Source: Planctomycetota bacterium
Lineage (GTDB): Bacteria > Planctomycetota > UBA1135 > UBA2386
Reading direction: 5' to 3'
Length of the DNA stretch: 64,000 nt
Assembly: GCA_965228735.1 (NCBI GenBank)
Contig: OZ245838.1
Location: 4,576,001-4,640,000 of the forward strand
The notes below the pieces were generated by a model. That model did not search any database. It was not told the DNA's origin and was given only the letters and a program-made list of their open reading frames with translations. This document shows positions 31,961 to 57,792 of this stretch, in pieces (position 1 is the stretch's first letter; every line of letters begins with the position of its first letter). Position numbers and translations under genes: made by a program.

Positions 31961-32190
31961 TTCGAATCCCACTCTCTTCAAGGTGAGAGGGGCCGTTTCT
32001 CGAAACGACTGGTGAGTCTTGGCGTTCTCGAAACGGGCCGCTATTCCATTCGACCGACAAGGCTGCACGGCATCGGGATATGCTGTATTGGAAAGGGTCT
32101 TGCCGCCACTTCTCGCCCCATCGGAATCGTGCGCCCGGCATGGCCTCACCAAGGATGAGCCCGCTCTAGAGTAACGTAAGGACTACACCG

Positions 32191-32451
32191 TTGGACCGCG
32201 ATACGACCAGCCAGATCGTCTCGATCCTGCTCGAACACGGCCGGCTCAGCCGCGACGCGGCGGAGTTGGAGCCGGAAGACAGCCTGTACGATGCCGGCAT
32301 GACGTCCCACGCCAGTGTCAGCGTCATGTTGGCGTTGGAGGAGGCGTTCGACGTGGAGTTCCCTGATAGCATGCTCAGCCGGCGGGTCTTCGAGAGCATC
32401 GGTTCCATCAGGGACGCTGTCGAGCAACTGATGACCAGTGCCCAGGGCTGA
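32191..32451 (+). CDS. Carrier protein of the aminoacyl-carrier type
   Basis: LYDAGMTSHASVSVMLALEEAFDVEFPD with the Ppant Ser; TTG start after AAGGA. Confidence 0.88.
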   Translation: MDRDTTSQIVSILLEHGRLSRDAAELEPEDSLYDAGMTSHASVSVMLALEEAFDVEFPDSMLSRRVFESIGSIRDAVEQLMTSAQG

Positions 32452-32475
32452 GGTGCCAAGGACCCGCGCCGTGCG

Positions 32476-33639: not shown

Positions 33640-33675
33640 GGCGCTGCCCCCCTCTCGCGCACACTCCCTTCGGCC

Positions 33676-34689: not shown

Positions 34690-34720
34690 TCCGAGGCTGC
34701 GCGTCGGCTAGCGTTTTGGA

Positions 34721-38610: not shown

Positions 38611-40920
38611 ATGACTACCTCATCGCAGCGCTGGACGACCGTCGCCGTCTTGTCGCTCTCGTTGCTCGTTTCTTGCGCCTCGGGTGAGCAGGACGGAACC
38701 GGCGCCGGCAACGAGCTTCAAGTCCTCACCGATGGACTCCCAGACGCGCTGGTCGGCTCCAGTTACTCCGCTGCGATCGAGGTTACCGGCGGTACTCCGG
38801 GCTACACGTTCACGGTGGTCGATGGCAGTCTGCCCACCGGTCTCGATTGGAACGACACGAGCGGCGCGATCTCGGGCGTGCCGTCGACTGCTGGTTCGTA
38901 TCAGTGCACGATCCAGGTCGAGGATAGCAGCGTTCCTCCACTGATCGCGCAGCAGGCCGTTTCGGTCAACGTCTACACGCCGGCTACCGCGCTGACCGTG
39001 CATTCGACCTCTCTTCCGGGAGCAACGCAGGGGGCCAACTACTTCTCGAGCGTATTGGTCTCGGGGGGCACTCCGCCCTACGGATTCTCGGTCTCGGCGG
39101 GCTCGCTTTCGCCTGGCCTCAACCTCGATACAGCAACCGGGGACGTGCTCGGCACGCCAACGTTGAGTGGCAGTTTCGCGTTCACTGTCACGGTGACGGA
39201 CAGTGCCAGTCCGGCTCAAGTCACCCACAGTGGCCTGTCTCTGGTGGTCGCGTCGAATGGCTCCAATCCGACGGCAACGTTCACCGCCAGCCGAACGACC
39301 GGTGTAGCGCCGCTGTCGATCTTCTTCGACGCGACGACGATCGCGAGTCCTCAGTACCCGCGGAAGTTCCATCACGTTCAATACAACTGGGACTTCTCCG
39401 ATCCGGGGTCGAGGCGTCCGACGGCAACGGGCCCGATGGCGGTGCACGTGTTCGAGGATCCGGGCACGTACGTGGTGACGTGTGTCGCCCTCGAGCCGGA
39501 TGGCACGCAGATCAACGAAGCGATGCTGATTCAGGTACAGGACCCGGACGTCGTGTTTGCCGGGACCGATACCATTTGCTTCTCCAACACCGCCAACTTT
39601 CCTGGGGCTCCGGTCGGCGCGAACCTGGTGACGACTAGTTCCTTCGACACAGCCCTCGCATACGCCGGCACAGGTAAGCGGTTGCTGTTCCGTCGCGGCC
39701 ACACGTTCTACAACTCGAGCACGCTCACGATCGATTCGCAGGGTCCGATGCTCGTCGGCGCGTTCGGGACCGGCACGAACCCAGACGTTCGTGGCATCTT
39801 CGGTAACAACCCGGTGATCGACGTGACTCACACGAGCGATGTGCTCGAGCTCGGTGACAACGGTTCGGAGTGCACGGACCTGCGCCTGATGGACCTGGAC
39901 TTCGATCCGCCCTCGGGCACCCCGCAGAAGCTCATCGGTGCCGCGTACCGCGTCGTGAACACGCTCGTGTATCGCATCAAAGCGGGCGAGTTCCGCCAGA
40001 TGGTGAGCTTGTCGGACGGGATCCCGAACTTTTATTCCATCGCGAATCACGATCTGACGACGATTGCCGACTGCCACTTCTGGGAAACCAGCGAGTACGG
40101 CGCTTACGTCTCCTCGAACCGTTCCGCGATTCTGGGGAGCCACTTCTTCTCGATCCCGACGGGCAGTGATCAGCACTTGATCCGGTTGCCCTGGGTCAAG
40201 AAGGGCATTATCGCCGGCAACTACATGCGGGGTGCTGCTCCGAACAAGAACTGCATCAAGCTGCATGCCCTGCCCTACACGGGTTCGGCGGCCCAGATTT
40301 CCGAAGACCTGATCATCGCGGACAACGAGATCCACACGACGACGGACTGGGGCGTCACGATCGGAACCGCGAGTTCATCTCGCGACGAACGGGTTCGTAA
40401 CGTCGTCGTCGAGCGAAACCAGTTCGTTTCCCACAACGGCAGTCAGGTCGACCTGGTCGTCAACTGTCCAGAGGTCACCGCTCGCAACAACGTGTTCGTG
40501 AACGACATCACCAATTCGCTCGGGCACTACTGCATCCGAGTCGCGCAGCGCGGACCCGGCCCGTCCCCGGCCAGCGTGGAGATCCTTCACAACACCGCCT
40601 ACACGACGAACAGCTCAATGCCGTCGATCGACCTCGTCAACGTCGGAACCCACGTGGGCGGCGCGGCCAAGGTTTGGAACAACTTGCTCTACGCTCCGAA
40701 TCTCCCGTCGTCGGCGATCGCTTCCGGGTCGGCGCCGATCGATTCGCAGGGCAACCTGCTGAACATCAACCCGCTGTTCGTCAACCCGTCGGCTTGGGAC
40801 CTCTCGTTGCAGGCGTCGTCGCCGGCGATCGGCATCGGCATCGTAGCTCCCGTGTTGGTGGACTACATGAACGATCCGCGCTCCGGAGCGGCGCCCGATG
40901 CCGGCGCCTACGAGTTCTAG
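38611..40920 (+). CDS. Lipoprotein with two Ig-like (He_PIG) domains, PKD and right-handed beta-helix
   Basis: Lipobox LLVSC, two GGTP.Y.F.V..GSL..GL...G..SG.P repeats, TGVAPLSIFFDA/YNWDF, Asn-rich repeats, LQASSPAIG..APDAGAYE tail. Confidence 0.8.
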   Translation: MTTSSQRWTTVAVLSLSLLVSCASGEQDGTGAGNELQVLTDGLPDALVGSSYSAAIEVTGGTPGYTFTVVDGSLPTGLDWNDTSGAISGVPSTAGSYQCTIQVEDSSVPPLIAQQAVSVNVYTPATALTVHSTSLPGATQGANYFSSVLVSGGTPPYGFSVSAGSLSPGLNLDTATGDVLGTPTLSGSFAFTVTVTDSASPAQVTHSGLSLVVASNGSNPTATFTASRTTGVAPLSIFFDATTIASPQYPRKFHHVQYNWDFSDPGSRRPTATGPMAVHVFEDPGTYVVTCVALEPDGTQINEAMLIQVQDPDVVFAGTDTICFSNTANFPGAPVGANLVTTSSFDTALAYAGTGKRLLFRRGHTFYNSSTLTIDSQGPMLVGAFGTGTNPDVRGIFGNNPVIDVTHTSDVLELGDNGSECTDLRLMDLDFDPPSGTPQKLIGAAYRVVNTLVYRIKAGEFRQMVSLSDGIPNFYSIANHDLTTIADCHFWETSEYGAYVSSNRSAILGSHFFSIPTGSDQHLIRLPWVKKGIIAGNYMRGAAPNKNCIKLHALPYTGSAAQISEDLIIADNEIHTTTDWGVTIGTASSSRDERVRNVVVERNQFVSHNGSQVDLVVNCPEVTARNNVFVNDITNSLGHYCIRVAQRGPGPSPASVEILHNTAYTTNSSMPSIDLVNVGTHVGGAAKVWNNLLYAPNLPSSAIASGSAPIDSQGNLLNINPLFVNPSAWDLSLQASSPAIGIGIVAPVLVDYMNDPRSGAAPDAGAYEF

Positions 40921-40998: not shown

Positions 40999-41829
40999 TC
41001 AGTTGGTCTTGATTCCGAGGATTGCGCGAGCGCGGTCTCGAAACTCGGTTCGCCTCTCCCGTGGAACCGCGAAGTAGTTCGTCGTTCTGCGCGGGTAGAT
41101 GTGGCTTTCGAGGAAGCCGTCCAGGCCGAGTCCGTCATCCTCATGCGCAACCCGGTTGGGTACCTGAATCGCGTAGTCGTGGCGTTCGAACTCTTCCCAG
41201 AGTCCGTTCTTTGTGAAGCCTAGAACTTCCGAGCTCGTCGGGCCGCTCTCGAACATGACGAGAGGGCGGCGGTTCCGAAGTAGTTCGGGAGCCCCTCTGA
41301 GGACACCGAGCTCGGCTCCTTCCACGTCGATCTTCACGACGTCGACGGCCTCGTTGCCGACCAGGTCGTCCAGTCGCTTCACGCCTACCTGGATCTCGGT
41401 AACGTCCGTGCCGGACTTGGAAGGCCGTCTCAACGAGTTGTAACCCGACCGGCGCCGATCGAGATGGAACGACGCGGTGCCGTCTTGTTCGCCGACCGCA
41501 CAGTCGTGGACCGTCGCGCGCGGAAAGCGCAAGCGCAGGCGCTTGGCCTTGTCGGGGGTGGCTTCGATCGCGATGACCCGAACGTCTGGACAGTGTGCCA
41601 AAACGGCCGCCGTGATCGACCCGATGTGAGCCCCCACGTCGACGAACACGCTCCCTGGCTTCGGCAGACGAACTACGAGCGAAGTGGAGATCTCGTCGTT
41701 AGCGTGGGTGCCAACGGCTTCTCGGTTCCGGATCGCGGCATGCGTAAGCTCCAGTATCCCTCTCGCCGTGCTCAGCCACCGACCGAACGGTGTCGTCAAG
41801 ATGCGCTGCTTCAGGCCTTGGACGATCAC
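40999..41829 (-). CDS. FkbM-family methyltransferase
   Basis: FVDVGAHIG, KIDVEGAE. Confidence 0.88.
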   Translation of the reverse strand: MIVQGLKQRILTTPFGRWLSTARGILELTHAAIRNREAVGTHANDEISTSLVVRLPKPGSVFVDVGAHIGSITAAVLAHCPDVRVIAIEATPDKAKRLRLRFPRATVHDCAVGEQDGTASFHLDRRRSGYNSLRRPSKSGTDVTEIQVGVKRLDDLVGNEAVDVVKIDVEGAELGVLRGAPELLRNRRPLVMFESGPTSSEVLGFTKNGLWEEFERHDYAIQVPNRVAHEDDGLGLDGFLESHIYPRRTTNYFAVPRERRTEFRDRARAILGIKTN

Positions 41830-44743: not shown

Positions 44744-45319
44744 TCAGTTCCCCCGCGCGACGGCCAGTGCACGCTTGCGCGATAGCGGCTTCTTGTCGGC
44801 GATCCACTCGAACCCGGCTCGCAGGATCGATCGAATCGATGGCACATTGCGGCGACTGCAGTCGACGTAGGCCGTTCCGCGGTTCGCGAGCTCCGCGTGC
44901 ATGGCGAAGCGATAGAGCTTCGGAGCCACACCGCGGCCGCGGAACGCTGGATACGTCCGGACACGAAAGAACACGATGTCTTCGGGTTCGAGCGGAAGGA
45001 ACCACTCCGCGAAGTACCGCCCCTTCCGGGTGAGCAGCAGTCCGGCCGTTCGGTTGTTGATCGACGCGACGTACAGCGTCGAGTTCTCGCGCAGCTCGCG
45101 CCTGTCTTCGGCCAACGTGGATTCGCCGCCTTCCGCGATGATGGCGCGGCAGACTTCGGCCGGGAGCTCGTCCGCGTTCTCGTACGCACGAAACGAGAGC
45201 TCGGTATCCGTCACCGCCGAGTAGGGGCCCCGATGCGCGAACACGTGGTGCTTGTTGGGCCAAAGGACCCACCAGTAGCCCCGCAGGCGTCGAAGGCCTT
45301 TACCGACCAGGCCGGGCAT
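44744..45319 (-). CDS. GNAT N-acetyltransferase
   Basis: RTYPAFRGRGVA, NVPSIRSILRAGF; start uncertain. Confidence 0.8.
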   Translation of the reverse strand: MPGLVGKGLRRLRGYWWVLWPNKHHVFAHRGPYSAVTDTELSFRAYENADELPAEVCRAIIAEGGESTLAEDRRELRENSTLYVASINNRTAGLLLTRKGRYFAEWFLPLEPEDIVFFRVRTYPAFRGRGVAPKLYRFAMHAELANRGTAYVDCSRRNVPSIRSILRAGFEWIADKKPLSRKRALAVARGN

Positions 45320-45665
45320 GCGGTCCAGGCGAGACGGTTCGGGTACGCGCATCGAGCTGGCGGGGGAGACGGAGAGCGAAGTCATGCGGCCGGTCGTGAG
45401 CTGCCAGCGGTAGTCTGGCACGTTCTCGGCGCACGGCCAGCCGATTGTACGAATGGTTCTCTTCTCGAGCACGGGAGACTTGGAGCCGACCTTGCAACAG
45501 TCGAGACGGCAGGGCGTCGGCATCCGTTCGGATGCGTGATCCGCTGATGGCATCGGTGCCTGCCGGCGGCGACCGGAGCGTTTTGGCTGGACTGGGTATC
45601 GTGACCGCTATTGAATCCGGATGGGCTTCGAGTGCCTCGTGGCCGAGGTTGCCGCAAGCCACCAC

Positions 45666-46919
45666 ATGAAGATCAACATCCCGTACGGCCGATCCGCCGT
45701 TCATCCTCTCGAGCTTGACGCGCGGACTCGCATTCAGGTTCTCGAGGCGAACGAAGCGCCGGAGGTCGACGAGGAGCAGGTCATTCAGCACGCGGTTCGG
45801 AATCCGATCGACAGCGAGCCGCTCGAGACCTTTCTCGCGGGGGCGCGGGATGTGCTCGTGATCGTGAACGACGCGACGCGCCCGACCCCGACTGCTCGAA
45901 TCCTCGACTACATCGACAGCTCGCTGCAGCGCGTCGAGCATCGCTTCATCGTGGCGACGGGCGCCCATCGGGCCCCGACCGAGGCGGAGTACCAACGAAT
46001 CTTCGGCGATCGTTACCCGACGATTCGTGGCCGCGTCACTTCGCACGACTCGAAGCGCCGGGAGGACATGGTCGATCTCGGGCACTCATCGAACGGGACT
46101 CCGATCCTCATCAACCGGGCAGCGATCGATGCCGATCGACTCGTGATCATCGGCGGAGTCGTGCCGCACTATTTCGCGGGCTACACCGGCGGCCGCAAGT
46201 CGCTGCTGCCGGGCATCGCGGGGTTCGAGACCATCGAAGCGAACCACCGCCTCGCCTTGCAGTCCTCGGCTCGGGCGCTGGCGCTGCGCGGGAATCCGGT
46301 TCACGAGGACATGGAGGATGCGATTCGCTCGGTCGAGAAACCCGTGTTCTCGATCATGGTCGTGCCGGACAAGAACCACCGGGTGGCTGCTGCAACGGCT
46401 GGCCACATCCATGGATCGTTCGAGCGTGCGGTCGAGAAGAGCAATCGGATCTTCGTCGCGCCGCTGGCCAGGAAAGCCGACATCGTCGTATCCGTCGTCA
46501 AACCGCCGCAGGACATCGACCTCTATCAGGCTCAGAAGGGGATCGAGAACGCGAAGCTCGCATTGAAGGATGGTGGCATCATCATCCTCGTCGCGGAGTG
46601 TGACAACGGCGTTGGTTCGAGCACGTTCGCTGACCTCCTCCGTAGTCGCGAGACGTCCCAAGAGGTCCTCGCAGAGATCGACCGTTCGTTCCGGCTGGGG
46701 TACCAGAAGGCCGGGATGATGGCCGAGATCGATACCTGGGCGAAGATGTGGATCGTGACGGACATCGATCGTGACGAGTTGCAGGGGTTGTTCCTCACCC
46801 CGTTCGGGAGCGTTCAGGAGGCCGTCGACCGCGCTCTCGAGGACAAGGGCCCGGACGCCGAGCTGCTGGTCCTGATGGATGGCGGAATGACGGTTCCGAG
46901 CGTCGGGTCGGGTGCTTGA
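45666..46919 (+). CDS. larA: LarA-family nickel-pincer-dependent racemase/epimerase
   Basis: NDATRPTP, ATGAHR, PHYFAGYTGGRKSLLPGI, EANH, GNPVHEDM, DLYQAQKG. Confidence 0.9.
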   Translation: MKINIPYGRSAVHPLELDARTRIQVLEANEAPEVDEEQVIQHAVRNPIDSEPLETFLAGARDVLVIVNDATRPTPTARILDYIDSSLQRVEHRFIVATGAHRAPTEAEYQRIFGDRYPTIRGRVTSHDSKRREDMVDLGHSSNGTPILINRAAIDADRLVIIGGVVPHYFAGYTGGRKSLLPGIAGFETIEANHRLALQSSARALALRGNPVHEDMEDAIRSVEKPVFSIMVVPDKNHRVAAATAGHIHGSFERAVEKSNRIFVAPLARKADIVVSVVKPPQDIDLYQAQKGIENAKLALKDGGIIILVAECDNGVGSSTFADLLRSRETSQEVLAEIDRSFRLGYQKAGMMAEIDTWAKMWIVTDIDRDELQGLFLTPFGSVQEAVDRALEDKGPDAELLVLMDGGMTVPSVGSGA

Positions 46920-47092
46920 CCGCGCGAGCGCAAGCTGTTGTCGCGCCCCTGTTCCGCGCGGTTGCTCCCGGCAAGGGTCGGTTCAAGGCCGCGATGGGAG
47001 GGGGTCGATAGTGGCTCGCGGGTTGCAGGAGGCGGATGCGGCTGCCGGGACCGGTGCGCCGTTGCCGCGGCAAGTGGAATGAGGCACACGAA

Positions 47093-48325
47093 ATGACGAC
47101 GGCCGCTGTCCGAGAACTGCTGCGGTCGAGCAAGGCGGCTGCCGTTGTGTTCCCGCTGAGCTACAACGGCGTCCTCTTCACGCGGGCGTTGCATGCCGAG
47201 GGCGTCCCCGTCGTGGGCGTCGTGCAGCCGCCCAGGGACTGCTTCTGGTGGACGTGGAGTTGCAGGAAGGTCGTCGTCGACGATCTCTACGGCGAGGACA
47301 CGGTGGCGACCCTGATCGCCCTCGGTGAGATCGCCGACATCAAACCCGTGCTGATCGCTACGTCCGATGAGGGGTTGCTCTTCATCACGAGGCACCGGGA
47401 GCGGCTGGCGCCTTTCTTCCGCATCAACGTTCCACGTGCGGATACCGCGGCACTCCTGATGGACAAGCTGAGTCTGTACGGCTGGGGCAGCGACCGGTTC
47501 GACTTTCCGAAGACGCTCGCGATCCACTCGGACGACGAGCTGGCCCGGGCGGTGAGCGAGGTGACGATGCCGGCGATCATCAAGCCGACCTATCGCGACG
47601 CGAACTGGCCGCCAGAGCTCGACAAGGCAGTGCTGTGCGAAGACACAGCTACGATGGAGGCCTACTATCGCGAGGCCAAGGACCACGCGCCGACCTTCCT
47701 GGTTTCGGAGTACGTCCCGGGCGGTGACGCGAACATCGAAACTTGCCACGTCTACTACGATCGGGGGCGGATGTTGGCGTCGTACACGGACCAGAAGATC
47801 CGGCAGTCGCCGCCACTGACGGGAACCGGCGCGTTCATCTCGTCGTGCCACAACCCCGAGATCCGCGACATCACGAAGCGGTTCTTCGACGCCCACGGGG
47901 ACTACTCGGGCGTCGGCGGGATCGAGTTCAAGAAGGACGAGCGGACGGGCAGCTTCAAGATCATCGAGCCGTTCGTCGGCCGACCGAGCAGTCACTTCTA
48001 CACCGGCCTGGGCGAGGGGTTCAACTTCCCCTATCTCGTCTACTGCCACATCGCCGGGCTCGACGTTCCGGAGTATCAGCAGTCCCGCCGGATCGTCAGT
48101 CAGTTGGACGAAGAGTTCGAGCTGCGCTCGTTCCGGTGGTACCTGCGCCAGGGTGAGATGACGATCTGGGGCTACATCAGAGCCGTTTGCAGCACCCGGG
48201 TCTTCGTGCGCTATTCGCTGCGTGATCCGATCGTCGGGCTGGTGTACACGGCGCAGGTCTTGCGGCGGATCGTCGGGAAGGCGTTCGCGCGCTTGATCGG
48301 CAAACGCGGCAAGGACCCGGCGTGA
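47093..48325 (+). CDS. ATP-grasp carboxylate-amine ligase, D-aspartate-ligase-like
   Basis: VLIATSDE, LLMDK, PKT, IIKP, SEYVPGGD, KIRQSP, IEFKKDERTGSFKIIE. Confidence 0.8.
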   Translation: MTTAAVRELLRSSKAAAVVFPLSYNGVLFTRALHAEGVPVVGVVQPPRDCFWWTWSCRKVVVDDLYGEDTVATLIALGEIADIKPVLIATSDEGLLFITRHRERLAPFFRINVPRADTAALLMDKLSLYGWGSDRFDFPKTLAIHSDDELARAVSEVTMPAIIKPTYRDANWPPELDKAVLCEDTATMEAYYREAKDHAPTFLVSEYVPGGDANIETCHVYYDRGRMLASYTDQKIRQSPPLTGTGAFISSCHNPEIRDITKRFFDAHGDYSGVGGIEFKKDERTGSFKIIEPFVGRPSSHFYTGLGEGFNFPYLVYCHIAGLDVPEYQQSRRIVSQLDEEFELRSFRWYLRQGEMTIWGYIRAVCSTRVFVRYSLRDPIVGLVYTAQVLRRIVGKAFARLIGKRGKDPA

Positions 48326-49323
48326 CACTCGGCGTCGTGGTGATCGGGCGCAACGAAGGTGAGCGCCTGCGTCGCGCGATCGAGTCGTGTCGTGGTCGAG
48401 GCGCACACGTGCTCTACGTTGATTCCGGATCCACGGACGGCAGCGTGAAGTTGGCGCGAGAGCTGGGCGTTGCCGTACTCGGATTGTGCCCCTCCCGTCC
48501 GTTCTCCGCGGCGCGCGGCCGCAAGGAGGGCTTCGAGTGGTTCGCGGCGAACGGCGTCGATGTCGACCACGTCCAGTTCGTGGACGGCGACTGCTGTCTC
48601 GATCGGGCGTGGCTCGAGTGCGCGACGGGTCATCTGGCCGCCAATGCCGATGTCGGCATAGTCTGCGGCGGCCTCGAGGAAGAGCATCCGGAAGCTTCGG
48701 TGTTCAACCGGATGAACTCGATCCGCTGGCAGGCTGCCGCGCCGGGCGACATCGAGTCGTGTGGTGGAATCTTCATGGTGCGGCGCGCGGTCTACGAGGC
48801 CGCAGGCGGCTTCGACGACCGGTTGATCACGGGGGAAGAGGCGGAGTTCTGTGTTCGCGTGCGGGCGTCCGGAGCACGTATCGTTCGGCTGCCGGCGCCG
48901 ATGGCATCCCACGATTCGAACATGGTGCGCTTCGGGGATTGGTGGAAGCGCGCGGTCTGGGGCGGCTATGGCGATGCCCACAAGCTGCGGGCGCAAGTGG
49001 ACATGGGCGGGGCGAGCGAGGGCTCCGAGTTGCGGAGTGCGCTGCTCTGGGGGGCGGTCGTGCCGGCGGTGGCCGTGCTCGGTGCGGTCGTTGCGCTTTG
49101 GGTGCCCTGGCTCTGGCTGGTACCGCTGTCATGCGTGGCCGGGTACCTGCTGCTCTTCGCCAAGATCGCGGCGCATCGGTTGCGGCAAGGGGACGGATTC
49201 GGGGATGCCGCGGTCTATTCCGCGCTTTGCGTCGTCCGAAAGACGCCGTTCGCGGTCGGTGTCCTGAGGTTCTTCGCCAGTCGTGGCGGGCAGGCGCGGC
49301 CGGACCCCCATGCCCGGGCGTAG
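48322..49323 (+). CDS. Glycosyltransferase family 2 with C-terminal TM segments
   Basis: VVVIGRNEG, YVDSGSTDGS, QFVDGD, GEEAEFC; GTGA overlap with the ATP-grasp gene. Confidence 0.9.
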   Translation: MTLGVVVIGRNEGERLRRAIESCRGRGAHVLYVDSGSTDGSVKLARELGVAVLGLCPSRPFSAARGRKEGFEWFAANGVDVDHVQFVDGDCCLDRAWLECATGHLAANADVGIVCGGLEEEHPEASVFNRMNSIRWQAAAPGDIESCGGIFMVRRAVYEAAGGFDDRLITGEEAEFCVRVRASGARIVRLPAPMASHDSNMVRFGDWWKRAVWGGYGDAHKLRAQVDMGGASEGSELRSALLWGAVVPAVAVLGAVVALWVPWLWLVPLSCVAGYLLLFAKIAAHRLRQGDGFGDAAVYSALCVVRKTPFAVGVLRFFASRGGQARPDPHARA

Positions 49324-49555: not shown

Positions 49556-51775
49556 ATGAACTCGCACACGCGGCATCTCGGGCAGGTCGAGCTCGGTGGG
49601 CTCGAGGCCCCGGGCTCGGGCGAACCACCACGGCGCAAGGGCCTGCTCCGGTTTGCCGTCATCCGGTATCGCGGGACCATCGCGATCGGCATGTTCATCG
49701 GTGCCTTGCTCGGATTCCTATACGGGGCCGGCCAGCCCAACACCTACGAGGCGGCTGGCAAGATGTTGTTCCAGACCGGCATGCGTGAGGCCGCGAACGC
49801 CGAGCTTGTCGTGGGGGAGTCGGTGAGTGCGTCCCGCACCGATGCGCAGTCGATCGCGACGGAGATGCAGATCCTCGAGAGCCCGGAGATCTATCAGAAG
49901 GTCCTCGAGACGGTCGGGGTGGAGCGGCTCATCGCGACGCCGGACCCACGGCGAGTCGACACGGAATCGACGCCGTTGCCGGTCGTGTTGTTGCACGAGT
50001 TCCAGGCGTGGCTGCTCGGGATGGGTCAAGGCGACGAAGCCGGCAGGCCCCGGGTCTCGACCAGCGCGGTGCTCTCTGGACTGCAGCGGGCGCTGCGCCC
50101 CGACGCGCTGACGCCGTCGAGTGTCATCGAGGTGTCGTTCGTCGCGGCGGACCCCGTTGTCGCACGCGACGTGGTCAATGCCTACCTCGAGGCTGCCGAG
50201 TCGCACCACCGCAAGGTGTTCAGCTCGAAGGAGCGACTCGAACTCAGTCGCTCGGAGGAACAGACCGCGAGGCGCGAGGTCGATGAGGCCGTGAGCGCCC
50301 TCGAGGAGTTCAATCAGAAGAACGGGATCTACGACCTGGCCGCGCAACGGACCGCGCTGGTCGTTCGCATCAACGAGCAGGAGCGCCTGATACAAGATGC
50401 TCGCACGCAGATGCGCCAGCTCGAGGTTCAGATCGCGTATCTCAAGCTTGCGATTGCTGTGGTCCAGAAGGAGCCGGCGCTGCTGGACAGCGCTCAGCCG
50501 AACCCGGACTACACCCGGATCCAGACCAGCTTGTCCGCGCTCGTGCTGCGCAAGCTGGACATGGAGCGTCGGGTCGCCGAGACGGCGGAGCAGTTCGCCG
50601 CGCGTCAGAAGACCCTCGATGAGAGGATCGCCATCCTCGAGCAGGAGGTGGCGAAGACCTCACCGACCGCGATGCAGCCGAACTTCGCGCGCGCGGAGCG
50701 GCTCGCGGCGTTGCAGGGAAAGCTCGTGGATGCCGAGGGATCGGCCGCCGGCCTCGACAAGGTCGTGGAGGGCAGGACGACGCAGCTCGAGGGACTCCGC
50801 AAGCGTCTGCAAGCCCTGAACGAGAGTGGACCACGCTCGGAGGCCTTGGCGGCCGAAGTGGCGCGCCAACGACAGGTCGCACAGAACCTCGCGGAGCGGC
50901 GGGAGCGCCTCGAGATGATGGGACTGCTGGACGACCAGCGCCTCGGCAACCTGAAGACGGTGGAAGCCGCGGTGACACCGCTAGCGAAGCTGGGGCCGGC
51001 TCGCGGGAAATTCCTGCTGTTCGGTTGCGTGCTGGGCGCGTGTGCTGGCCTGTCGATCGCGTTGTGGCGCAGTCTCACCGACCCCCTCCTCCGCCGGCCG
51101 GGTGAGCTGGCCCAGTTCGGAGGCGAACCCGTCCTGGCGGTCGTTCCGAAGTCGAAGGTCGTCGTTGACCTGGCTGGCATCGTGGCCGGGTCCGTGGGCG
51201 AGGAGTCGCACATCCCCGCACTCATCCACGAGATGCGCGAGAACTTCGCCGGCGGTCAGGGTGTGTCACGCCCACATCGGGTCGCGTTCGTCGGCGGCGG
51301 CGTCGATGTCGAGTGCTCGATGGTGACGCTTGCTGCCGCTCGTGGGCTGGTGGAGAGCGGAGCCAGGGTTCTCGTGGTGGGGGGGGAACGCCTCGTCGAG
51401 GATCTGGGCTCGGAGTCCTCGTCGCCACCTCGGAACGAGGTGGTCGCGACGGCGGAGCCACGCCTCTCGGTCCTGGCGGTCGATCGTGTCGTCGCGCCGG
51501 CCCACGCGCTCGATCGCGTCGAGGCGGAGTTCGACTACGTGTTGCTCGACGTCGGCGATTTCGAGACCAACCCGGCGTTCTCGGCACAGTTGACGAGCGC
51601 GCACTCGCATGTCCTCGTTGTTGCAGGCGGCCGCCTGACGCGACATCAGGTCGAGAAACGACTGCGGACGGTCAAGCGCGTCGGGGGTGAGTACCGGGGC
51701 GCGGTTTTCACTTCCTATGACAGCAGCTACCCGCGGTGGTTGCCCGGTCAGGATCCCGAACTGCAGGCGACGTGA
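49556..51775 (+). CDS. Polysaccharide co-polymerase, Wzc/GumC-like, with degenerate kinase domain
   Basis: Two TM segments flanking a long coiled coil, TEMQILES, VLAVVP, FDYVLLD; no Walker A GK[ST]. Confidence 0.82.
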   Translation: MNSHTRHLGQVELGGLEAPGSGEPPRRKGLLRFAVIRYRGTIAIGMFIGALLGFLYGAGQPNTYEAAGKMLFQTGMREAANAELVVGESVSASRTDAQSIATEMQILESPEIYQKVLETVGVERLIATPDPRRVDTESTPLPVVLLHEFQAWLLGMGQGDEAGRPRVSTSAVLSGLQRALRPDALTPSSVIEVSFVAADPVVARDVVNAYLEAAESHHRKVFSSKERLELSRSEEQTARREVDEAVSALEEFNQKNGIYDLAAQRTALVVRINEQERLIQDARTQMRQLEVQIAYLKLAIAVVQKEPALLDSAQPNPDYTRIQTSLSALVLRKLDMERRVAETAEQFAARQKTLDERIAILEQEVAKTSPTAMQPNFARAERLAALQGKLVDAEGSAAGLDKVVEGRTTQLEGLRKRLQALNESGPRSEALAAEVARQRQVAQNLAERRERLEMMGLLDDQRLGNLKTVEAAVTPLAKLGPARGKFLLFGCVLGACAGLSIALWRSLTDPLLRRPGELAQFGGEPVLAVVPKSKVVVDLAGIVAGSVGEESHIPALIHEMRENFAGGQGVSRPHRVAFVGGGVDVECSMVTLAAARGLVESGARVLVVGGERLVEDLGSESSSPPRNEVVATAEPRLSVLAVDRVVAPAHALDRVEAEFDYVLLDVGDFETNPAFSAQLTSAHSHVLVVAGGRLTRHQVEKRLRTVKRVGGEYRGAVFTSYDSSYPRWLPGQDPELQAT

Positions 51776-51811: not shown

Positions 51812-53125
51812 ATGCCGGCGCTAGTACCCATTGCCCTGTTCGGCTGGCTGCCGCTGTCGTTGGTCTTGTTCTCCATGCTCCAACCGGCGCGCGCCGTGTT
51901 GGCGACCCTCCTCGGGGGGTGGTTGTTCCTGCCGAACAGTGAGATCGACCTGCCGGGGTTCCCGCCCTACACGAAGTCGACGGCCATCGCCCTGGGGCTG
52001 ATGCTCGGTGCCGTGACCACGGGTTCGAAGGGGCGAGCGCCGTTTGCCCTGCGTTGGTTCGACTATCCCGTCCTCGTCTTCTGCGTCGGGTCAGCGGCCA
52101 CTTCCCTGAGCAATGACCTCGGTCTCTACGATGGCGCCTCGACAGCACTCGAGAAGCTGATGTTCTGGGCGGTGCCGTACTTCTTCGGGCGCCTCTACTT
52201 CACCAATCTGGCAGCGCTTCGCGACATGGCGATTGCCTTCGCGATCGGCGGGATCGTCTATGGGGTTCTGTGCCTCTACGAGATCCGGATGAGTCCTCGG
52301 CTGAACCTCAACGTCTACGGCTTCCTGCAGCACAGTTGGCGGCAGCACATCCGGTACGGCGGGTGGCGGCCGATGGTCTTCATGGAACACGGACTGATGG
52401 TGGCCCTCTGGATGGCGGCGACCACGACGGTGTCGTTCTGGTTGTGGCGAGGTCGGGTGCTGACCCGGGTCGCGGGCATGCCATTGGCGTGGGTCACTCC
52501 TGCTCTGGCAGTCGTGACCGTGCTCTGCAAGTCGGCCGGTGGGTGGCTCGCGCTGTCGATCGGTGTTGGCACCTACTACCTCTACCAAGGTCTGCGGATG
52601 CGCTGGGTGCTGGTAGCGGCGCTGCTCGTCTTCCCGGCCTACGTATTCTCGCGTATCACCGGGCTCGTTGCGGCGGATCAGGTTCAAGCCATCGCGGAGA
52701 CCGTTTTCGATCGGGAGCGCGTCGGCTCGCTCGTCGTGAGGTTGTCGCAGGAGGATCCCTTCGTCTCGCGAGCCCTGATCCGTCCGATACTCGGTTGGGG
52801 GGGGTACGGCCGGGGCTGGCCGGTCGATCCGTTCTCCGGCTCCAATGCCGTGCGGCAGGTCGATGCGCTGTGGCTGGTCGTCTTCAGCAAGTTCGGGTTG
52901 CTCGGCCTGATCTCGCTGTGCATGACCTTAGTGCTCGGGCCGTTGATCGCGCTCCGGTCGGTGGCCAGGGCCCGGCATGCCGGCTATCTTCAGAGGTTCC
53001 TACCGGCAGTCCTGTGCGTGCCGGTCGCGTTGTTTCTTGCCGATAGTCTGTTCAACGGCATGGCGAACCCCGCATACACGTTGGCCGCTGGTGCGCTCGC
53101 CGGCTTCGGCTCGGCGCGAGCGTGA
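51812..53125 (+). CDS. Wzy/O-antigen ligase-like polymerase
   Basis: About ten TM segments, YEIRMSP, RPMVFMEHGL, RPILGWGG. Confidence 0.75.
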   Translation: MPALVPIALFGWLPLSLVLFSMLQPARAVLATLLGGWLFLPNSEIDLPGFPPYTKSTAIALGLMLGAVTTGSKGRAPFALRWFDYPVLVFCVGSAATSLSNDLGLYDGASTALEKLMFWAVPYFFGRLYFTNLAALRDMAIAFAIGGIVYGVLCLYEIRMSPRLNLNVYGFLQHSWRQHIRYGGWRPMVFMEHGLMVALWMAATTTVSFWLWRGRVLTRVAGMPLAWVTPALAVVTVLCKSAGGWLALSIGVGTYYLYQGLRMRWVLVAALLVFPAYVFSRITGLVAADQVQAIAETVFDRERVGSLVVRLSQEDPFVSRALIRPILGWGGYGRGWPVDPFSGSNAVRQVDALWLVVFSKFGLLGLISLCMTLVLGPLIALRSVARARHAGYLQRFLPAVLCVPVALFLADSLFNGMANPAYTLAAGALAGFGSARA

Positions 53126-54585
53126 CGATGGACGGTCGTTCCCTGCGATCGCGGGCACTCGCAGGGTCGTTCTGGACCCTCGGCGGATACACGACGAGCC
53201 AGCTCATTCGGCTCGGCAGCCACCTCGTCCTGGCCTGGTTGCTGGCGCCGGAGATCTTCGGGTTGATGGCACTCGTGAAGGTCGTTCAGCAGGGCCTCAC
53301 GATGTTCTCCGACATTGGCATCGCGCCGAGCATCGTACAGAGCAAGCGTGGGGACGATCCCGAGTTCCTGAACACCGCGTGGACGATTCAGATCATCCGC
53401 GGCGTGATCCTGTGGCTCGTGGCCTGTGTGCTCGCGTGGCCGTTGGCCGCGCTGTTCGCACGCAATGACCTGGCGGCCTGGCAGCTGCTCTACCTGTTGC
53501 CGGTGGCGGGATTCGGCGCCGTGTTCGACGGCTTCGCCTCGACTTCGCTCGGGACCCTGAATCGCAAGCTCTGGCTCGGGCGGGTGACATTGCTCGAGGT
53601 CGGCACGCAAGTGGCTACCGTCGCGGTGATGGTCGCCTGGGGCGCGGTATCGGCGACCGCCTGGGCCCTCGTGTTCGGGGGGTTGGCCGGCTCGCTCGTG
53701 CGCTGCGTCGTGAGCCACTACCTGGTTCCGGGTTACCGCGTGCGGATCGTCTACAATCGCGATTGCGCGCGCGAGATCCTGCACTTCGGGAAGTGGATCT
53801 TCTCGAGCACCGCCTTCACGTTCCTCGCGCTCAACCTCGACCGCCTGATCCTGGGCAACATCCTGTCTCTCGATGAGCTGGGGCTCTACTCGATCGCCCT
53901 GGTGTTCGCCAAGGTGCCGCAGCACGTGGGCTCGCGGCTGTCCTCGACCGTGCTCTTTCCGGTGTATTCGTCGTTTCGCGACCAACCGGATCGCATGGTC
54001 AGCGTGGCGTTGAAGGCGCGAGGCCTCGTGCTGCTGGTCGGGGTGGCGGTTTGCACCTGCCTCGTCGTCGTGAGCCCGATCTTCTTCTACACGTTGTGGG
54101 ACGAGCGCTATCACGAAGCGGGGACCATCGCGCAGTGGATGGCGCTCTACATCTGGGCGATGCTCGTGCAGCTGACGATGAGCCGAATCCCCCTCGCGCT
54201 CGGGAACTCCCGGGCGCTGTTCTTCGCGAACGTGTGGATGTGCGCCGGCAACCTCCTGGCGCTCGTGGGCTACGTCTACTTCGCCCTGCCCGGGTTCATT
54301 GCGGGGCTGGCCCTCGGCCCGATCGTGTCACACCTCTACCTGCTCCGGCACGTTCCCTCGGGAGCCAGAGCGCTCTTGCGACAGAGTGTGGGGTTCACGT
54401 TCGTCGCGGGCTCGTACGGCGGCCTCGCCGTTGCGGTGACCTCATACGTGCGCGCTACGTGCAGCGAGACCGCTTGGGCCTTCGCGGTCGGCGGAATGGC
54501 GCTGATACCCCTGACGATCGCGGGCGCGGTCGGAGCCGCGCAGTTGAAGAACCGCTCGGGGGCCGTTGCGGCCGCGTCTCGCTGA
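53122..54585 (+). CDS. Wzx oligosaccharide flippase
   Basis: LLAPEIFGL, FSDIGI, FLNTAWT, DRLILG, LGLYSIA; multi-TM. Confidence 0.88.
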   Translation: MTMDGRSLRSRALAGSFWTLGGYTTSQLIRLGSHLVLAWLLAPEIFGLMALVKVVQQGLTMFSDIGIAPSIVQSKRGDDPEFLNTAWTIQIIRGVILWLVACVLAWPLAALFARNDLAAWQLLYLLPVAGFGAVFDGFASTSLGTLNRKLWLGRVTLLEVGTQVATVAVMVAWGAVSATAWALVFGGLAGSLVRCVVSHYLVPGYRVRIVYNRDCAREILHFGKWIFSSTAFTFLALNLDRLILGNILSLDELGLYSIALVFAKVPQHVGSRLSSTVLFPVYSSFRDQPDRMVSVALKARGLVLLVGVAVCTCLVVVSPIFFYTLWDERYHEAGTIAQWMALYIWAMLVQLTMSRIPLALGNSRALFFANVWMCAGNLLALVGYVYFALPGFIAGLALGPIVSHLYLLRHVPSGARALLRQSVGFTFVAGSYGGLAVAVTSYVRATCSETAWAFAVGGMALIPLTIAGAVGAAQLKNRSGAVAAASR

Positions 54586-54617: not shown

Positions 54618-55691
54618 TCAACGATAGCGCCGCCGCCGCTCCAGCCGTCCACGGACTCGGGTGGGGAGTTGACGCAGGCCCTTGAACGGGAGCCCGACCG
54701 TGTATCGCTCCCAGGTAGCGATGGCTCTCCGGCAAGTGCGAAGAACCGACGGGGTCTCGACCGTGCCCTCGAGCAGGCCGATCTCGCTCGTCATCAGCCG
54801 CTGTTTGTAGAGCGCTTCGCCCTTGCCGAGATCGATTCGTCGGATCCCACGCTCGGCGACCGCTTCTGCAATCCTGAGCAGCAGAATGAGCCCGGGGCTG
54901 AACCTCGAGTATTCCGCCGTGTAGCCGGGGAACCAGTAGTGCAGGACATCCGTCGAGCGAATGCCGAAGTGCAAAGCGATCGGTTCGTCACCGAGATAGA
55001 GCGCCGAGAGGATTCCCGAGAACTGTTCCTCTCGGGTGGCGTGCGCTGCCCGGAGAAGATCTCTGGTCCAGGCATGGGCGAACGCGTCCGCGGTTCCCGA
55101 CTCGCGGTACTGGCTCGACTTGATCGCCATGAGCCGGTCCAGAAGGCGATCGTCGGTTGCCTCCAACTCGAACCGCAGCGGCCCGTGCTCGCGTTCGAGC
55201 TTCCGGCACGCGGCATCGACCTTGTTCACCTGCTTGGATCCGCTGGCGCGAACCCGAGCGCCGTAGTCCGCGAAACCGGCTTCCAGATCCATGCAGGGCG
55301 ACGCTGCCGACGCCGTAGCGTGTGGCGCGAACGCTTCGTTGCCCGACGACAGGTGATCGAAATCCCAGACCGCGACCCCACAGTTGGCGACCAACTCCTG
55401 GGCGTCGAATCGTGTGTCCGCGGCCATGATCGGCCCGTGGTGATCCGAGAGCGGTCCGCCGACCGGGCGTCCACGGCGCCATGGTCCGACCTGGAACGGG
55501 AAGAAGCCGGTCGGGTTCGAGTCGCCGCCGAGGATGGCGACGCGCACGTCGTTGCGCACCGTCGCGACCAACCGCGTGAATTCGTGGCAGAAGTAGGGAC
55601 TGGCCAGCAGCGGGTTCGCGCTCCGGATCTCGTTCCAGGCCGCCACGTCCCGGGCGGTGAGATCCATGCCATCGATGACCCTGACTTTCAC
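54618..55691 (-). CDS. GNAT acyltransferase, CelD/BcsL type
   Basis: SPYFCHEF, GGPLSDHHG, YSRFSPGLILL, IDLGKGEALYK. Confidence 0.85.
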   Translation of the reverse strand: MKVRVIDGMDLTARDVAAWNEIRSANPLLASPYFCHEFTRLVATVRNDVRVAILGGDSNPTGFFPFQVGPWRRGRPVGGPLSDHHGPIMAADTRFDAQELVANCGVAVWDFDHLSSGNEAFAPHATASAASPCMDLEAGFADYGARVRASGSKQVNKVDAACRKLEREHGPLRFELEATDDRLLDRLMAIKSSQYRESGTADAFAHAWTRDLLRAAHATREEQFSGILSALYLGDEPIALHFGIRSTDVLHYWFPGYTAEYSRFSPGLILLLRIAEAVAERGIRRIDLGKGEALYKQRLMTSEIGLLEGTVETPSVLRTCRRAIATWERYTVGLPFKGLRQLPTRVRGRLERRRRYR

Positions 55692-55854: not shown

Positions 55855-57792
55855 CTACAAGGTGACGCGATAGCGGCGCGTCCAATGCAGCAGGACGAAT
55901 ATCGCCCAGATGCGTGACCAGTAGATGCCGGGTGCGCCGGCCTGGTGGGCTTCCCACAGACGAAGCACCGCGTCGGGATTCAGACCGCTGGCCTCGCAGA
56001 GCCCGCGGTCACGGAGCGTGGCATCGATGTCGCCCTTGAGTGCATTCCGGCTCCAGACCTCGAGTGGCAAGACGAAGCCCGATTTGGGGCGGTCGAACAA
56101 CTCGGTCGGTAGGCCGCGCAGACCGTTTCTTCGGAGGGCATCCTTGCGGCCCAGCGGCTCGTATCGGCGCGGGATGCTCATGCCCGCAGCGGCTTCGATG
56201 ACCTCGTGATCGAGCAGCGGCACCCGCACCTCGAGTGCGACTGCCATGCTGGCCGTATCCGTGTCGCGCAGCAGTCGCTCACCGATGAAGTTCATGAGTT
56301 CGAGATTCGAGATGCCGTGCAGCGTCGGAGCGTCACGCCAGAATCGATCCCGAGCGGTCGAGTCGGCCGCTGCCAGACCGTGGGACGTCGGGGCGGAGCG
56401 AAGACGACTCAGCTGGGCCAGGAAGGCGGACGAAAAGAGCCCGTACGACACCTGGTAGAGCTCCGCGATGTCGCCCTTCGTCGCCAACGCATCGGCGAGT
56501 TTGCCCCAGCGTGTTTGCGGCGGCACGACTCCTGCCGGACCGGTCTTGAGGCGGGTGACGAGGCCCGCGAGTCGTCGCCGGACCGGATCCGGCAGCACGC
56601 CGAGGCGGCGGGCCCACGTCGCTGCCTTCGGGATGTCGCGGAAACTCCGGTAGCCGCCGAAGAGCTCATCGCCACCCGCGCCCGAAACGGCGACCGTGAT
56701 GCCGGCCTCGCGAACTGCCCGACTCACGAAGTACGTGTTGATTCCGTCGAATGTCGGCTGATCCAGGCCGCCGAGCGCGCTTTCGAGCTGGCTCGCAAAG
56801 CGCGCTTCGCCGAGGTGGATCTCGTGGTGCTCGGTACCGATGTGTTCCGCGACTGCCCGCGCGTAGGAGCTCTCGTCGAACTCGGACTCGTCGAACGCGA
56901 TGTTGAACGTGCGGATGCCCTGGCTGCAGCGGCTCGCGAGGTTGGCCATGGCGCTCGAATCGATGCCCCCCGACAAGAAGACACCGAGCGGCACATCGGC
57001 GATCAGGCGATCCCGGACCGCCTGCTGGAGCTTGTCGGCGAGGTGCTCTTCCCGGTCCTCGTCCGAGCCGCTCCCGGTCGAGCTCGTCGGCAGGCTCCAG
57101 AAGCGCTCTGGCTCCTGCATCGTGCCGTCGGCATCGATCCAGCCGGTATGTCCCGCCGGGAAGCTGCGGATGCCGTCGACGATGGTGGCGCTCCCGTTCA
57201 CGAACCCGTTCCACAGGTAGGTGGAGAGGGCGGTCTCCGAGAGCCGTCGGTCCACCAGGCCGCTCTCGAGCAGGGCCCGGACCTCGGAGGCGAATATCGC
57301 GATCCGCTTGCCGGCCGGCCGCTGAACTTCACTGATGTAGAGCGGCTTGATGCCCACCCGGTCGCGAGCGATCAGCACGCGTCGGGACGTCGCGTCCCAC
57401 AGCGCGAACGCGAACATCCCGCGAAAGTGTCGGACGCAGTCGCGGCCCCATTGGGCGTAGGACTTGAGGATTACCTCCGAGTCGGTCTGCGTACGGAACT
57501 CGTGACCGAGGCTTTCCAGTTCCCCGCGGACGATTCCGAAGTTGTAGATTTCTCCGTTGAAGCAAAGTACGTTGCCCGTCGACGGGTCGTGCATGGGCTG
57601 ACGCCCGGCGTCGCTCAAGTCGATGATGGCGAGTCGCCGATGCGCGAAATACGCGCCGAACTCGGGCTCGGAATCGCTTCGCCAAGTGCCCTTCGCATCG
57701 GGCCCTCGGTGGGCCTGGAAGTCAGAGCAGCGCGCGATGGCGTCCGTCACTTCGCCATCAATTGCTCCAACCCCGCCTGCGATTCCGCACAT
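55855..57792 (-). CDS. asnB: Asparagine synthase (glutamine-hydrolysing) family amidotransferase
   Basis: MCGIAG, HRGPD, RRLAIID, FNGEIYN, FLSGGIDS, SGAGGDELFGGY, EVRVPLLD. Confidence 0.93.
   Translation of the reverse strand: MCGIAGGVGAIDGEVTDAIARCSDFQAHRGPDAKGTWRSDSEPEFGAYFAHRRLAIIDLSDAGRQPMHDPSTGNVLCFNGEIYNFGIVRGELESLGHEFRTQTDSEVILKSYAQWGRDCVRHFRGMFAFALWDATSRRVLIARDRVGIKPLYISEVQRPAGKRIAIFASEVRALLESGLVDRRLSETALSTYLWNGFVNGSATIVDGIRSFPAGHTGWIDADGTMQEPERFWSLPTSSTGSGSDEDREEHLADKLQQAVRDRLIADVPLGVFLSGGIDSSAMANLASRCSQGIRTFNIAFDESEFDESSYARAVAEHIGTEHHEIHLGEARFASQLESALGGLDQPTFDGINTYFVSRAVREAGITVAVSGAGGDELFGGYRSFRDIPKAATWARRLGVLPDPVRRRLAGLVTRLKTGPAGVVPPQTRWGKLADALATKGDIAELYQVSYGLFSSAFLAQLSRLRSAPTSHGLAAADSTARDRFWRDAPTLHGISNLELMNFIGERLLRDTDTASMAVALEVRVPLLDHEVIEAAAGMSIPRRYEPLGRKDALRRNGLRGLPTELFDRPKSGFVLPLEVWSRNALKGDIDATLRDRGLCEASGLNPDAVLRLWEAHQAGAPGIYWSRIWAIFVLLHWTRRYRVTL

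Follow-up and report, generated by a model that had tools for sequence, protein, structure and literature searches.

Malate racemases (MARs) of the LarA family are treated as carbon-use enzymes in the portions consulted of PMC7583248 and PMC11770544, and passages of the latter describe the residues that tell them apart: MARs carry H or Q followed by K at the signature positions, where LARs carry W and E/Q, and they epimerise tartrate as well as malate. Gene context is often a poor predictor of LarAH activity, as stated in excerpts of PMC7583248. The operon logic of a racemase paired with a ligase is known from racD-aslA (described in part of PMC4155827), and N-malyl O-polysaccharides have been reported in Vibrio vulnificus, Shewanella algae, Pseudoalteromonas rubra and Flavobacterium psychrophilum (PMC3210612). 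In the literature that we searched, where subscription journals were thinly covered, we found no enzymes for N-D-malyl glycans, no malyl ligase and no LarA homologue in a polysaccharide locus. Here we analyze a larA homologue at the head of a polysaccharide gene run in a 64,000-nucleotide stretch of a Planctomycetota genome (the window), and compare it with these systems.

The locus and its racemase

Six plus-strand genes of the window constitute a Wzx-type polysaccharide run, headed by larA, an ATP-grasp gene and a GT2 gene. The first is a larA homologue of malate-racemase (MAR/LarAH6-like) type (45666..46919, 417 aa), assigned through Pfam, NCBIfam and PDB matches and a YF...QK signature. 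It is followed, after a gap of 173 bp, by an ATP-grasp carboxylate-amine-ligase-like gene (47093..48325, 410 aa) whose stop is overlapped through GTGA by a GT2 glycosyltransferase (48322..49323; Pfam, synteny), and these coordinates agree with the direct succession and overlap given in a preliminary description of this DNA. The run continues with a Wzc/Wzz-like polysaccharide co-polymerase or chain-length determinant (49556..51775; TIGR03007, 3e-19), a membrane protein (51812..53125) and a Wzx-type flippase (53122..54585; Pfam Polysacc_synt_3, 7e-45), an orthologue of which lies directly upstream of larA in genome G063. The membrane protein has no Pfam match at E ≤ 0.001 and no family match; it is a putative Wzy-like polymerase with orthologues of 39-43% identity in genomes G061 and G063. 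On the minus strand lie a GNAT acetyltransferase divergent from larA (44744..45553; profile and synteny), with its true start probably near 45300, a GNAT that is a conserved member of the cluster (54618..55691; Pfam Acetyltransf_6, synteny) and, in the same glycan region, an asnB-type amidotransferase (55855..57792; TIGR01536, over cut-off). A scan of the locus for promoters and terminators yielded matches at chance level only.

The window's LarA matches Pfam Lar_N (4e-56) and LarA_C (3e-16), both over the Pfam cut-off, and its best PDB match is Mar2 (6d6z, E 6e-60). The His/Lys motifs described earlier are indeed intact, and all cofactor and catalytic residues are there: R72 (in NDATRP), H101, H168, K178, H194 and Y287/Q288/K291. 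In the alignment, R72, H101, H168, K178, H194 and K291 correspond to R75, H108, H174, K184, H200 and K298 of LarA1, following the reference numbering in the consulted parts of PMC11770544 and PMC7583248. Q347/K348 occupy the positions equivalent to W358/T359 and align to H-K of Mar2, and all three cluster LarAs retain the signature Lys. The best NCBIfam model is NF052593 (LarAH6 MAR), and the protein scores under every NCBIfam equivalog cut-off, including those of LarAH5/LarAH6 (378 versus 500 bits for NF052593, and 292 versus 462 bits), as do its close relatives (371-386 bits). These scores, together with the long branch on which the protein sits in the tree, mean that its substrate may have shifted.

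Fumarase, malate dehydrogenase or malic enzyme is found at 22 of the 80 closest metagenome LarA loci and a GlcD-like dehydrogenase at 42 of them, while malic enzyme occurs at 8 of 28 other spirochaete LarA loci. The signature residues and these neighbours narrow the substrate to malate over lactate or glycerate, and the sequence favours a malate-racemase type for which racemisation is predicted. From the D-hydroxy acids listed at first (lactate, malate, glycerate) we thus retain malate, and the LAR signature given above leads us to set aside lactate and glycerate as first choices. Fifteen long LarA homologues comprise 14 Fe-S fusions and one citrate synthase fusion, with no racemase-ligase fusion among them, an absence that is weak evidence.

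The window's genome contains two larA genes, and the genome check suggested in the preliminary description located larB, larC and larE by profile search at three unlinked places, each over its family cut-off. These cofactor genes are present in genome G062 as well. G063 has the larA-ligase-GT2 trio with no larB, larC or larE over cut-off in an assembly of completeness not given, and the G061 assembly yielded neither LarA nor larBCE in the profile search.

The ligase and the conserved gene order

The longest reading frame of the ligase starts at 47036; we took 47093 as its start, since a GAGG precedes this position and the resulting protein agrees in length with P0001, a 96%-identical homologue. 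Sequence searches of Pfam, NCBIfam and PDB gave no direct family match, and at E ≤ 1 there was no Pfam match to PF14305 (ATPgrasp_TupA). The ATP-grasp fold is established from the predicted structure: the AlphaFold model (pLDDT 90.6) matches PurK, RizA and Ddl in Foldseek at E about 1e-16, with all top matches being ATP-grasp enzymes, a profile search matches Ddl, and homologues carry PF15632/PF02786, in accord with the identity originally assigned to the gene after larA. The label 'D-aspartate ligase' is only an automatic JGI name on homologues of 28-30% identity, and the searches brought up no AslA sequence or model. The Asp racemase partner and peptidoglycan setting of D-aspartate ligases are not seen here, the neighbours being instead larA, GT2 and Wzx.

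Across 166 homologues, K125, K164, E278, E292 and R297 are nearly invariant; we take the two lysines to be ATP-binding and the two glutamates metal-binding. The Asn of E-x-N in ATP-grasp enzymes forms part of a second-metal motif that is not universal. Position 294 is Phe in the small close clade; among 156 distant homologues it is Thr in 80 cases and Asn in 70. A Phe at this metal-site position could mean altered or reduced ligase activity. Among 36 long homologues, taken from the 150 listed, five are fused to a polysaccharide deacetylase and one each to GT2 and GT4, fusions that mark the wider ligase family as glycan-linked, and none to a racemase, the latter absence being weak evidence. No Asp racemase was found (E ≤ 1e-8) in 84 of the 139 ORFs near 17 distant ligases, a scan that left out near-duplicate loci and some small ORFs, nor in three annotated plasmid loci. 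On the strength of this neighbour scan, racemase pairing is not a trait of the ligase family.

The order larA-ligase-GT2 recurs in two of the three close orthologous ligase loci (L033 and L034, both from spirochaetes), so that the LarA/ATP-grasp adjacency, whose conservation had been put forward for checking, is kept in these two. GT2 lies directly downstream of the ligase in all four close-clade loci, a sample of which two come from one class. In L034 the ligase is within a few bases of larA, and other shared cluster genes are reshuffled between loci while the trio order is kept. The remaining orthologous locus, L032 (contig C225 of G061, 35 kb, end to end), has ligase-GT2 without larA, and there an orthologue of the GNAT at 44744..45553 directly precedes the ligase. 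No close ligase orthologue was found beyond the window's genome (G000) and G061-G063 in 339 genomes from the same class as the window, 401 from the class of G063 and 251 from the phylum of G061; relatives at 44-47% identity (P0005-P0008, P0141) stand outside the context counts. LarA is present at 0 of 53 distant-ligase loci, and the ligase at 0 of 108 other LarA loci (0/80 closest metagenome, 0/28 other spirochaete). Given its recurrence in two spirochaete genomes, the gene order is more than chance.

In the tree, the window's LarA nests among relatives of 57-59% identity, several of them labelled Desulfobacterales, and the spirochaete cluster LarAs nest among spirochaete metabolic LarAs. A single clade of cluster LarAs was rejected in three tests (AU p 0.0027, 0.00046 and 1.5e-6). 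Two racemase lineages therefore fill the same slot, which gives comparative support of a strength seldom available for a gene pair this rare.

Proposed role of the trio and alternative readings

The reading that we tentatively prefer, at somewhat under an even chance, is that LarA makes D-malate and that the ATP-grasp enzyme activates its C4 and amide-links it to an amino sugar of a surface polysaccharide. A supply of D-malate to the sugar coat is likely in view of a trio order shared with two spirochaetes whose racemase is of different ancestry. LarA, with cofactor from the unlinked larB, larE and larC, would interconvert L- and D-malate. Since cells already contain L-malate, a racemase placed first among biosynthetic genes is of use chiefly where D-malate is required. 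By analogy with D-aspartate ligase, and given the modelled fold, the ligase would form the C4 acyl-phosphate of D-malate and pass the malyl group to a free amine. Two polysaccharide deacetylases conserved in the cluster suggest a de-N-acetylated sugar as the acceptor. The overlapping GT2 might then incorporate the malylated sugar or glycosylate malate at its 2-OH, with export and extension of the unit falling to Wzx and the polymerase; AsnB is not needed in this model. Several caveats attach to it: the absence of larA from L032, the absence of detectable larBCE from G063, the presence of Phe294 in the ligase and, in the window, the 173-bp gap that parts larA from the ligase.

In its wider form, the proposal is of a D-malylation cassette in which a nickel-pincer malate racemase, twice recruited from central metabolism, feeds a clade of D-malate:amino-sugar ligases, and GT2 builds malyl into the polymer, a scheme that we regard as possible and place below even. 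If true, it would locate a nickel-pincer enzyme in a polysaccharide operon. The locus puts forward a specific racemase, ligase and substrate, and is testable with two purified proteins; its interest is limited in that it is rare (four loci), comes from hosts that are uncultured and faces two counter-examples.

It is unlikely that LarA is instead a passenger, in the sense of a malate racemase of metabolism that was carried into a mobile glycan island without any link to the polysaccharide. Consistent with such an origin, the close relatives of LarA are metabolic genes, L192 (closely related to the LarAs of the spirochaete clusters) lies outside any glycan cluster, one orthologous cluster lacks larA and one host lacks detectable cofactor genes. 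LarA could also be there for metabolism, since G000, G062 and G063 yielded no further close copy of malate type. A passenger would, however, require two LarA lineages to arrive beside the same rare ligase in matching position and orientation; with two larA among the several thousand genes of the window's genome, we estimate the probability of this at roughly one in a thousand or less. Moreover, the GlcD-FeS partners that flank L055, the nearest relative of the window's LarA with known context, did not come along and are absent from the window locus.

Coupling of LarA and ligase through other chemistry would also fit the synteny and tree evidence. The ligase might activate a uronic or amino acid and the hydroxyl of the D-hydroxy acid attack it to yield an ester, a linkage that Ddl-type ATP-grasp enzymes form with D-lactate (as stated in part of PMC8807649); or the acid might be tartrate, on which malate racemases also act, 2-hydroxysuccinamate or another malate relative. 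Changed specificity is hinted at by the clade-specific Phe294 and the long branches. We deem this reading rather improbable: the deacetylase fusions point to an amine acceptor, known glycan malyl groups are C4 amides, and the three cluster LarAs retain the malate signature Lys.

The persistence of ligase-GT2 without larA in L032 also accords with a LarA that serves the cluster and not the ligase, delivering D-malate or a similar acid to GT2, a GNAT or a nearby acyl-carrier/NRPS-PKS route. The ATP-grasp enzyme would then join an amine to a uronic acid like Cj1438, which forms amides on glucuronate (according to excerpts of PMC11800379). Both G062 and G063 do have NRPS/PKS genes close to the trio, and some 20 kb downstream of larA the window's genome carries an FkbH-ACP-thioesterase. 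Yet in all three loci larA directly precedes the ligase, and is not beside GNAT-6, FkbH or NRPS; the spirochaete NRPS/PKS match those of the window's genome at just 27-36%, about 47 kb away; and Cj1438 is TupA-like, whereas in G063 it is a separate gene that matches PF14305. This makes such a division of labour improbable.

The preliminary description had combined LarA, the ligase and AsnB in a triad, and its distance of about 6.5 kb to asnB holds (6,532 bp from the end of GT2); larBCE and the conserved order speak for that interpretation, and its AsnB leg falls away. That AsnB amidates the carboxyl left free on the D-acid after ligation, in the way AsnH acts on D-Asp, is very improbable, and we rejected AsnB as a member of the unit: although it shares the glycan region and an AsnB occurs some 22 kb from the G063 ligase, the window's asnB lies on the minus strand and cannot share the larA transcript, the G063 protein is merely 33% identical and closer to another of the four AsnB-like proteins of the window's genome, G061 has no match, and the usual role of the AsnB type is amidation of uronic acid.

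Comparison with known systems

In L. plantarum, lactate racemisation reportedly supplies D-lactate to cell-wall synthesis (Goffin 2005), so that a LarA role that is biosynthetic rather than catabolic, as first suggested for this locus, has precedent. There, as proposed here, an ATP-grasp enzyme draws on the product of a LarA in building the envelope; that system is a rescue route with unlinked racemase and ATP-grasp genes and with the hydroxy acid as nucleophile, whereas here a malate-type racemase gene directly precedes the ligase.

The window's LarA shares with Mar1/Mar2 (LarAH5, LarAH6, LarAH62; PMC7583248, PMC11770544) all cofactor-binding and catalytic residues as well as the H/Q-K signature, has its best profile and PDB matches in this group, and comes from a genome with larBCE. 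It differs in scoring below the NCBIfam cut-offs, in having Gln where most close relatives have His, and in its place in a polysaccharide operon, not beside malic enzyme, fumarase or GlcD. As in the RacD-AslA-AsnH system of the D-Asp/D-Asn crossbridge in Lactococcus and Enterococcus (described in part of PMC4155827), a racemase gene lies beside that of an ATP-grasp carboxylate-amine ligase, and D-malate, the predicted substrate, is the hydroxy analogue of D-Asp. Here, though, the racemase is a nickel-pincer hydroxy-acid enzyme and not an Asp racemase, the locus is of Wzx glycan type and not peptidoglycan, orthology of the ligase to AslA is not established and AsnB is not conserved. Campylobacter jejuni Cj1438 (in excerpts of PMC11800379) offers another case of ATP-grasp and GT2 tailoring a surface polysaccharide through an amide, but it activates the glucuronate of the glycan and adds an amine, while the window's ligase has no TupA domain (PF14305) and has a racemase neighbour.

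In the N-malyl O-polysaccharides (PMC3210612), an amino sugar carries malate as a C4-amide, and in some of them the malate is D/R and O-glycosylated; this is the type of product predicted here. They are known as structures only, and our searches found no enzymes assigned to them; with D-malyl amides known on several bacterial polysaccharides, the locus offers, if our reading is true, candidate enzymes for N-D-malyl glycans.

The larA-ligase-GT2 unit and its surroundings

The host genome (G000), a single contig of 7.19 Mb and 69% GC, harbors a glycan region that spans from the ~37 kb position of the window to a few kb beyond its end. Three intact plus-strand ORFs lie within it: a LarA-family racemase gene (larA, 45666-46919), an ATP-grasp gene (hereafter, ligase; 47093-48325) and a GT2 gene (48322-49323) overlapping the latter through GTGA. 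Farther along the run come a chain-length determinant, a membrane protein lacking any family match and a Wzx flippase, and a divergently oriented GNAT gene lies upstream of larA.

A scan of GTDB genomes yielded 20 ligase loci, 3 close (56-58% identity) and 17 distant. The larA-ligase adjacency noted in the preliminary description is conserved, with the larA-ligase-GT2 order recurring in two of the three close loci, L033 (assembly G062) and L034 (G063), both from spirochaetes. About fifteen genes are common to G000, G061 and G063, and the trio is notable for being retained while the remaining shared genes are shuffled. LarA was absent from all 53 loci of distant ligases (17 read with flanks of up to 10 kb and 36 with ~1.5 kb). 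No further close orthologues emerged from 339, 401 and 251 additional genomes searched, and the pairing evidence comprises four loci. The trio constitutes a genuine, rare and testable gene unit.

The third close locus (L032, in G061) counts against coupling, as it presents a GNAT-ligase-GT2 arrangement and larA is missing from the whole of its 35 kb contig (G061:C225). This contig is labeled Bacteroidetes, but by eye its regulator, export and lipoprotein genes appear to resemble their spirochaete counterparts, which makes its binning uncertain; mis-binning or a recent transfer may be the cause. The nickel-pincer cofactor genes larB, larC and larE are present in the host genome, as the preliminary description required, each over cut-off and in three unlinked places. 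All three were also found in G062; G063 carries the trio, yet none of them scores over cut-off there. The G063 assembly (5.0 Mb) contains five Lar_N matches. Since G061 and G063 are incomplete (completeness unstated) and G063 holds other LarA-family genes, a missing assembly region could possibly explain the absent genes.

Other genes in and near the region were also recorded. A 769-aa lipoprotein-like protein with Ig, PKD and beta-helix domains (38611-40920), encoded inside the glycan region, is possibly a polymer-modifying enzyme. Just past the window end (L173), a fusion of an FkbH domain with acyl-carrier and thioesterase domains (L173:1266-4142) adjoins a sulfotransferase and two polysaccharide deacetylases, with another GT2 also nearby; together with an FkbM methyltransferase (window 40999-41829), this fusion suggests a second acyl-decoration route. 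Consecutive genes at 31235-37231 (phosphopantetheinyl transferase, acyl-CoA dehydrogenase, DUF1839, GH2 glycosidase) are reminiscent of amino acid:carrier-protein ligase clusters, and neither a ligase nor a carrier protein was identified in that row.

Family assignment of the ligase and the racemase

The ligase has no direct family match in Pfam, NCBIfam or PDB sequence searches. Its AlphaFold model, built on an 11-sequence alignment (pLDDT 90.6), matches PurK, the L-amino-acid ligases RizA and YwfE, and Ddl in Foldseek. Homologues carry PF15632 and PF02786, and "D-aspartate ligase" is only an automatic name attached to some of them at 28-30% identity. Residues K125, K164, E278, E292 and R297 are nearly invariant across 166 homologues. 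Position 294 is Phe in the window ligase and in all seven of its homologues P0002-P0008, whereas of 156 distant relatives 80 have Thr there and 70 have Asn; Phe294 marks a distinct clade and could reflect changed specificity or reduced activity. Polysaccharide deacetylase fusions occur in 5 of 36 long homologues, alongside single fusions to GT2, GT4, GNATs or methyltransferase, indicating that the wider family is glycan-linked; none of the 36 is fused to a racemase. In a Chloroflexia assembly, a DUF362 protein lies directly downstream of a distant homologue (L051:3961-5394); DUF362 is the outgroup family of LarA in PMC11770544. Another distant homologue, in a glycan region of assembly G688 (L169:5474-10775), neighbors a PEP mutase and a D-isomer-specific 2-hydroxyacid dehydrogenase, possibly an alternative feed of D-hydroxy acid (phosphonate) to this family.

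The window LarA exceeds cut-off for both Pfam Lar_N and LarA_C, and its cofactor and catalytic residues are complete. Its best solved relative is the malate racemase Mar2 (E 6e-60), and its best NCBIfam model is the LarAH6 malate racemase (378 bits, below the cut-off of 500). Malate racemases, according to PMC11770544, have H/Q and K at positions equal to W358/T359, where the window protein has Q347 and K348. A second host homologue (L002, G000:C1:5357931-5359064), 29-31% identical to the first, best matches a lactate racemase model below cut-off.

Two LarA lineages before one ligase

The closest relatives of the window LarA are 57-59% identical, those named being mostly Desulfobacterales. None of 60 genomes related to the host has a LarA above 34% identity, which suggests that larA was acquired from elsewhere. 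The 80 closest metagenome loci encode a GlcD-like dehydrogenase (42) and fumarase, malate dehydrogenase or malic enzyme (22), and none, many being short contigs, matches the ligase or 17 other tested cluster proteins. These neighborhoods point to a metabolic, malate-linked lineage from whose usual context the window copy has departed. PMC7583248 cautions that genomic context often fails to predict LarAH activity. Among 28 other spirochaete LarAs, none lies beside a ligase and 8 adjoin malic enzyme. Spirochaete malate-type LarAs (L195-L202, L203) often adjoin phosphoglycerate kinase, and at L203:190-2733 both occupy one open frame.

Both a 123-row FastTree tree and three IQ-TREE subsets place the window LarA among Desulfobacterales-like proteins and the L033 and L034 copies among spirochaete metabolic LarAs. 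Grouping the three cluster LarAs, a hypothesis fixed ahead of the first tree (subset selection followed it), was rejected with p 0.0027 (35 rows, LG+G4), 0.00046 (45 rows, 7 of 52 having been omitted to save time) and 1.5e-6 (mixture model, 20 rows). Given its long end branch (0.6-1.1), the exact place of the window LarA is less certain than the split between it and the spirochaete copies. Window and spirochaete proteins share 46-48% identity for LarA and 56-57% for the ligase; it is the tree, and not these pairwise values alone, that supports separate ancestry. This points to two separate recruitments of larA or to the in-place replacement of one copy by a foreign one, and both scenarios imply that a malate-type racemase was kept directly before the ligase. 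That larA is a passenger gene, a reading to which the larA-free G061 cluster lends itself, is set against this repeated placement and appears unlikely.

Proposed chemistry and comparison with known systems

From the genes and their order, the residues and the cofactor genes, all observed, and from the modeled fold, we infer that, most likely, LarA would convert L-malate to D-malate, and the ligase would activate its C4 carboxyl and transfer it to the amine of a sugar deacetylated by an enzyme of the cluster; GT2 would then handle the malylated sugar or glycosylate the malate hydroxyl. Somewhat less probable than a passenger larA is a coupled LarA and ligase with ester-forming or other-acid chemistry, which shares the conserved gene order with the malate reading and is set against the malate-type residues and the deacetylase fusions of the wider ligase family. 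Less probable again, the ligase might amidate a uronate, as Cj1438 does (PMC11800379), with LarA serving another enzyme; the retained trio weighs against this.

The full triad including AsnB, as first described, is very improbable, with asnB (55855-57792) on the minus strand, 6,532 bp from GT2, and without conserved linkage. The only linked counterpart, in G063, is 33% identical, lies ~22 kb from the ligase and better matches another of the four AsnB-like genes in G000; G061 has no AsnB match, and those of G062 lie on other contigs. Gene neighborhoods thus place the window AsnB outside any conserved unit with the trio, though some group of this glycan may be its amidation target. The second AsnB-like gene past the window end (L173:10345-12729) scores best against a lasso-peptide cyclase model (500 bits, cut-off 525). 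With an ABC transporter and a nucleotidyltransferase nearby, it may belong to a separate peptide locus.

In the literature listings searched, we found no report of LarA in a polysaccharide locus. A biosynthetic role for LarA is not new in principle, since LarA is reportedly used in L. plantarum peptidoglycan synthesis (Goffin 2005).

The proposed chemistry is drawn by analogy with D-aspartate ligase, which acts via beta-aspartyl phosphate and is encoded in one operon with its racemase (PMC4155827). The LarA-ligase unit would work like racD-aslA, pairing a racemase with an ATP-grasp enzyme, but it falls outside that system, from which it differs in racemase family, context and amidotransferase link.
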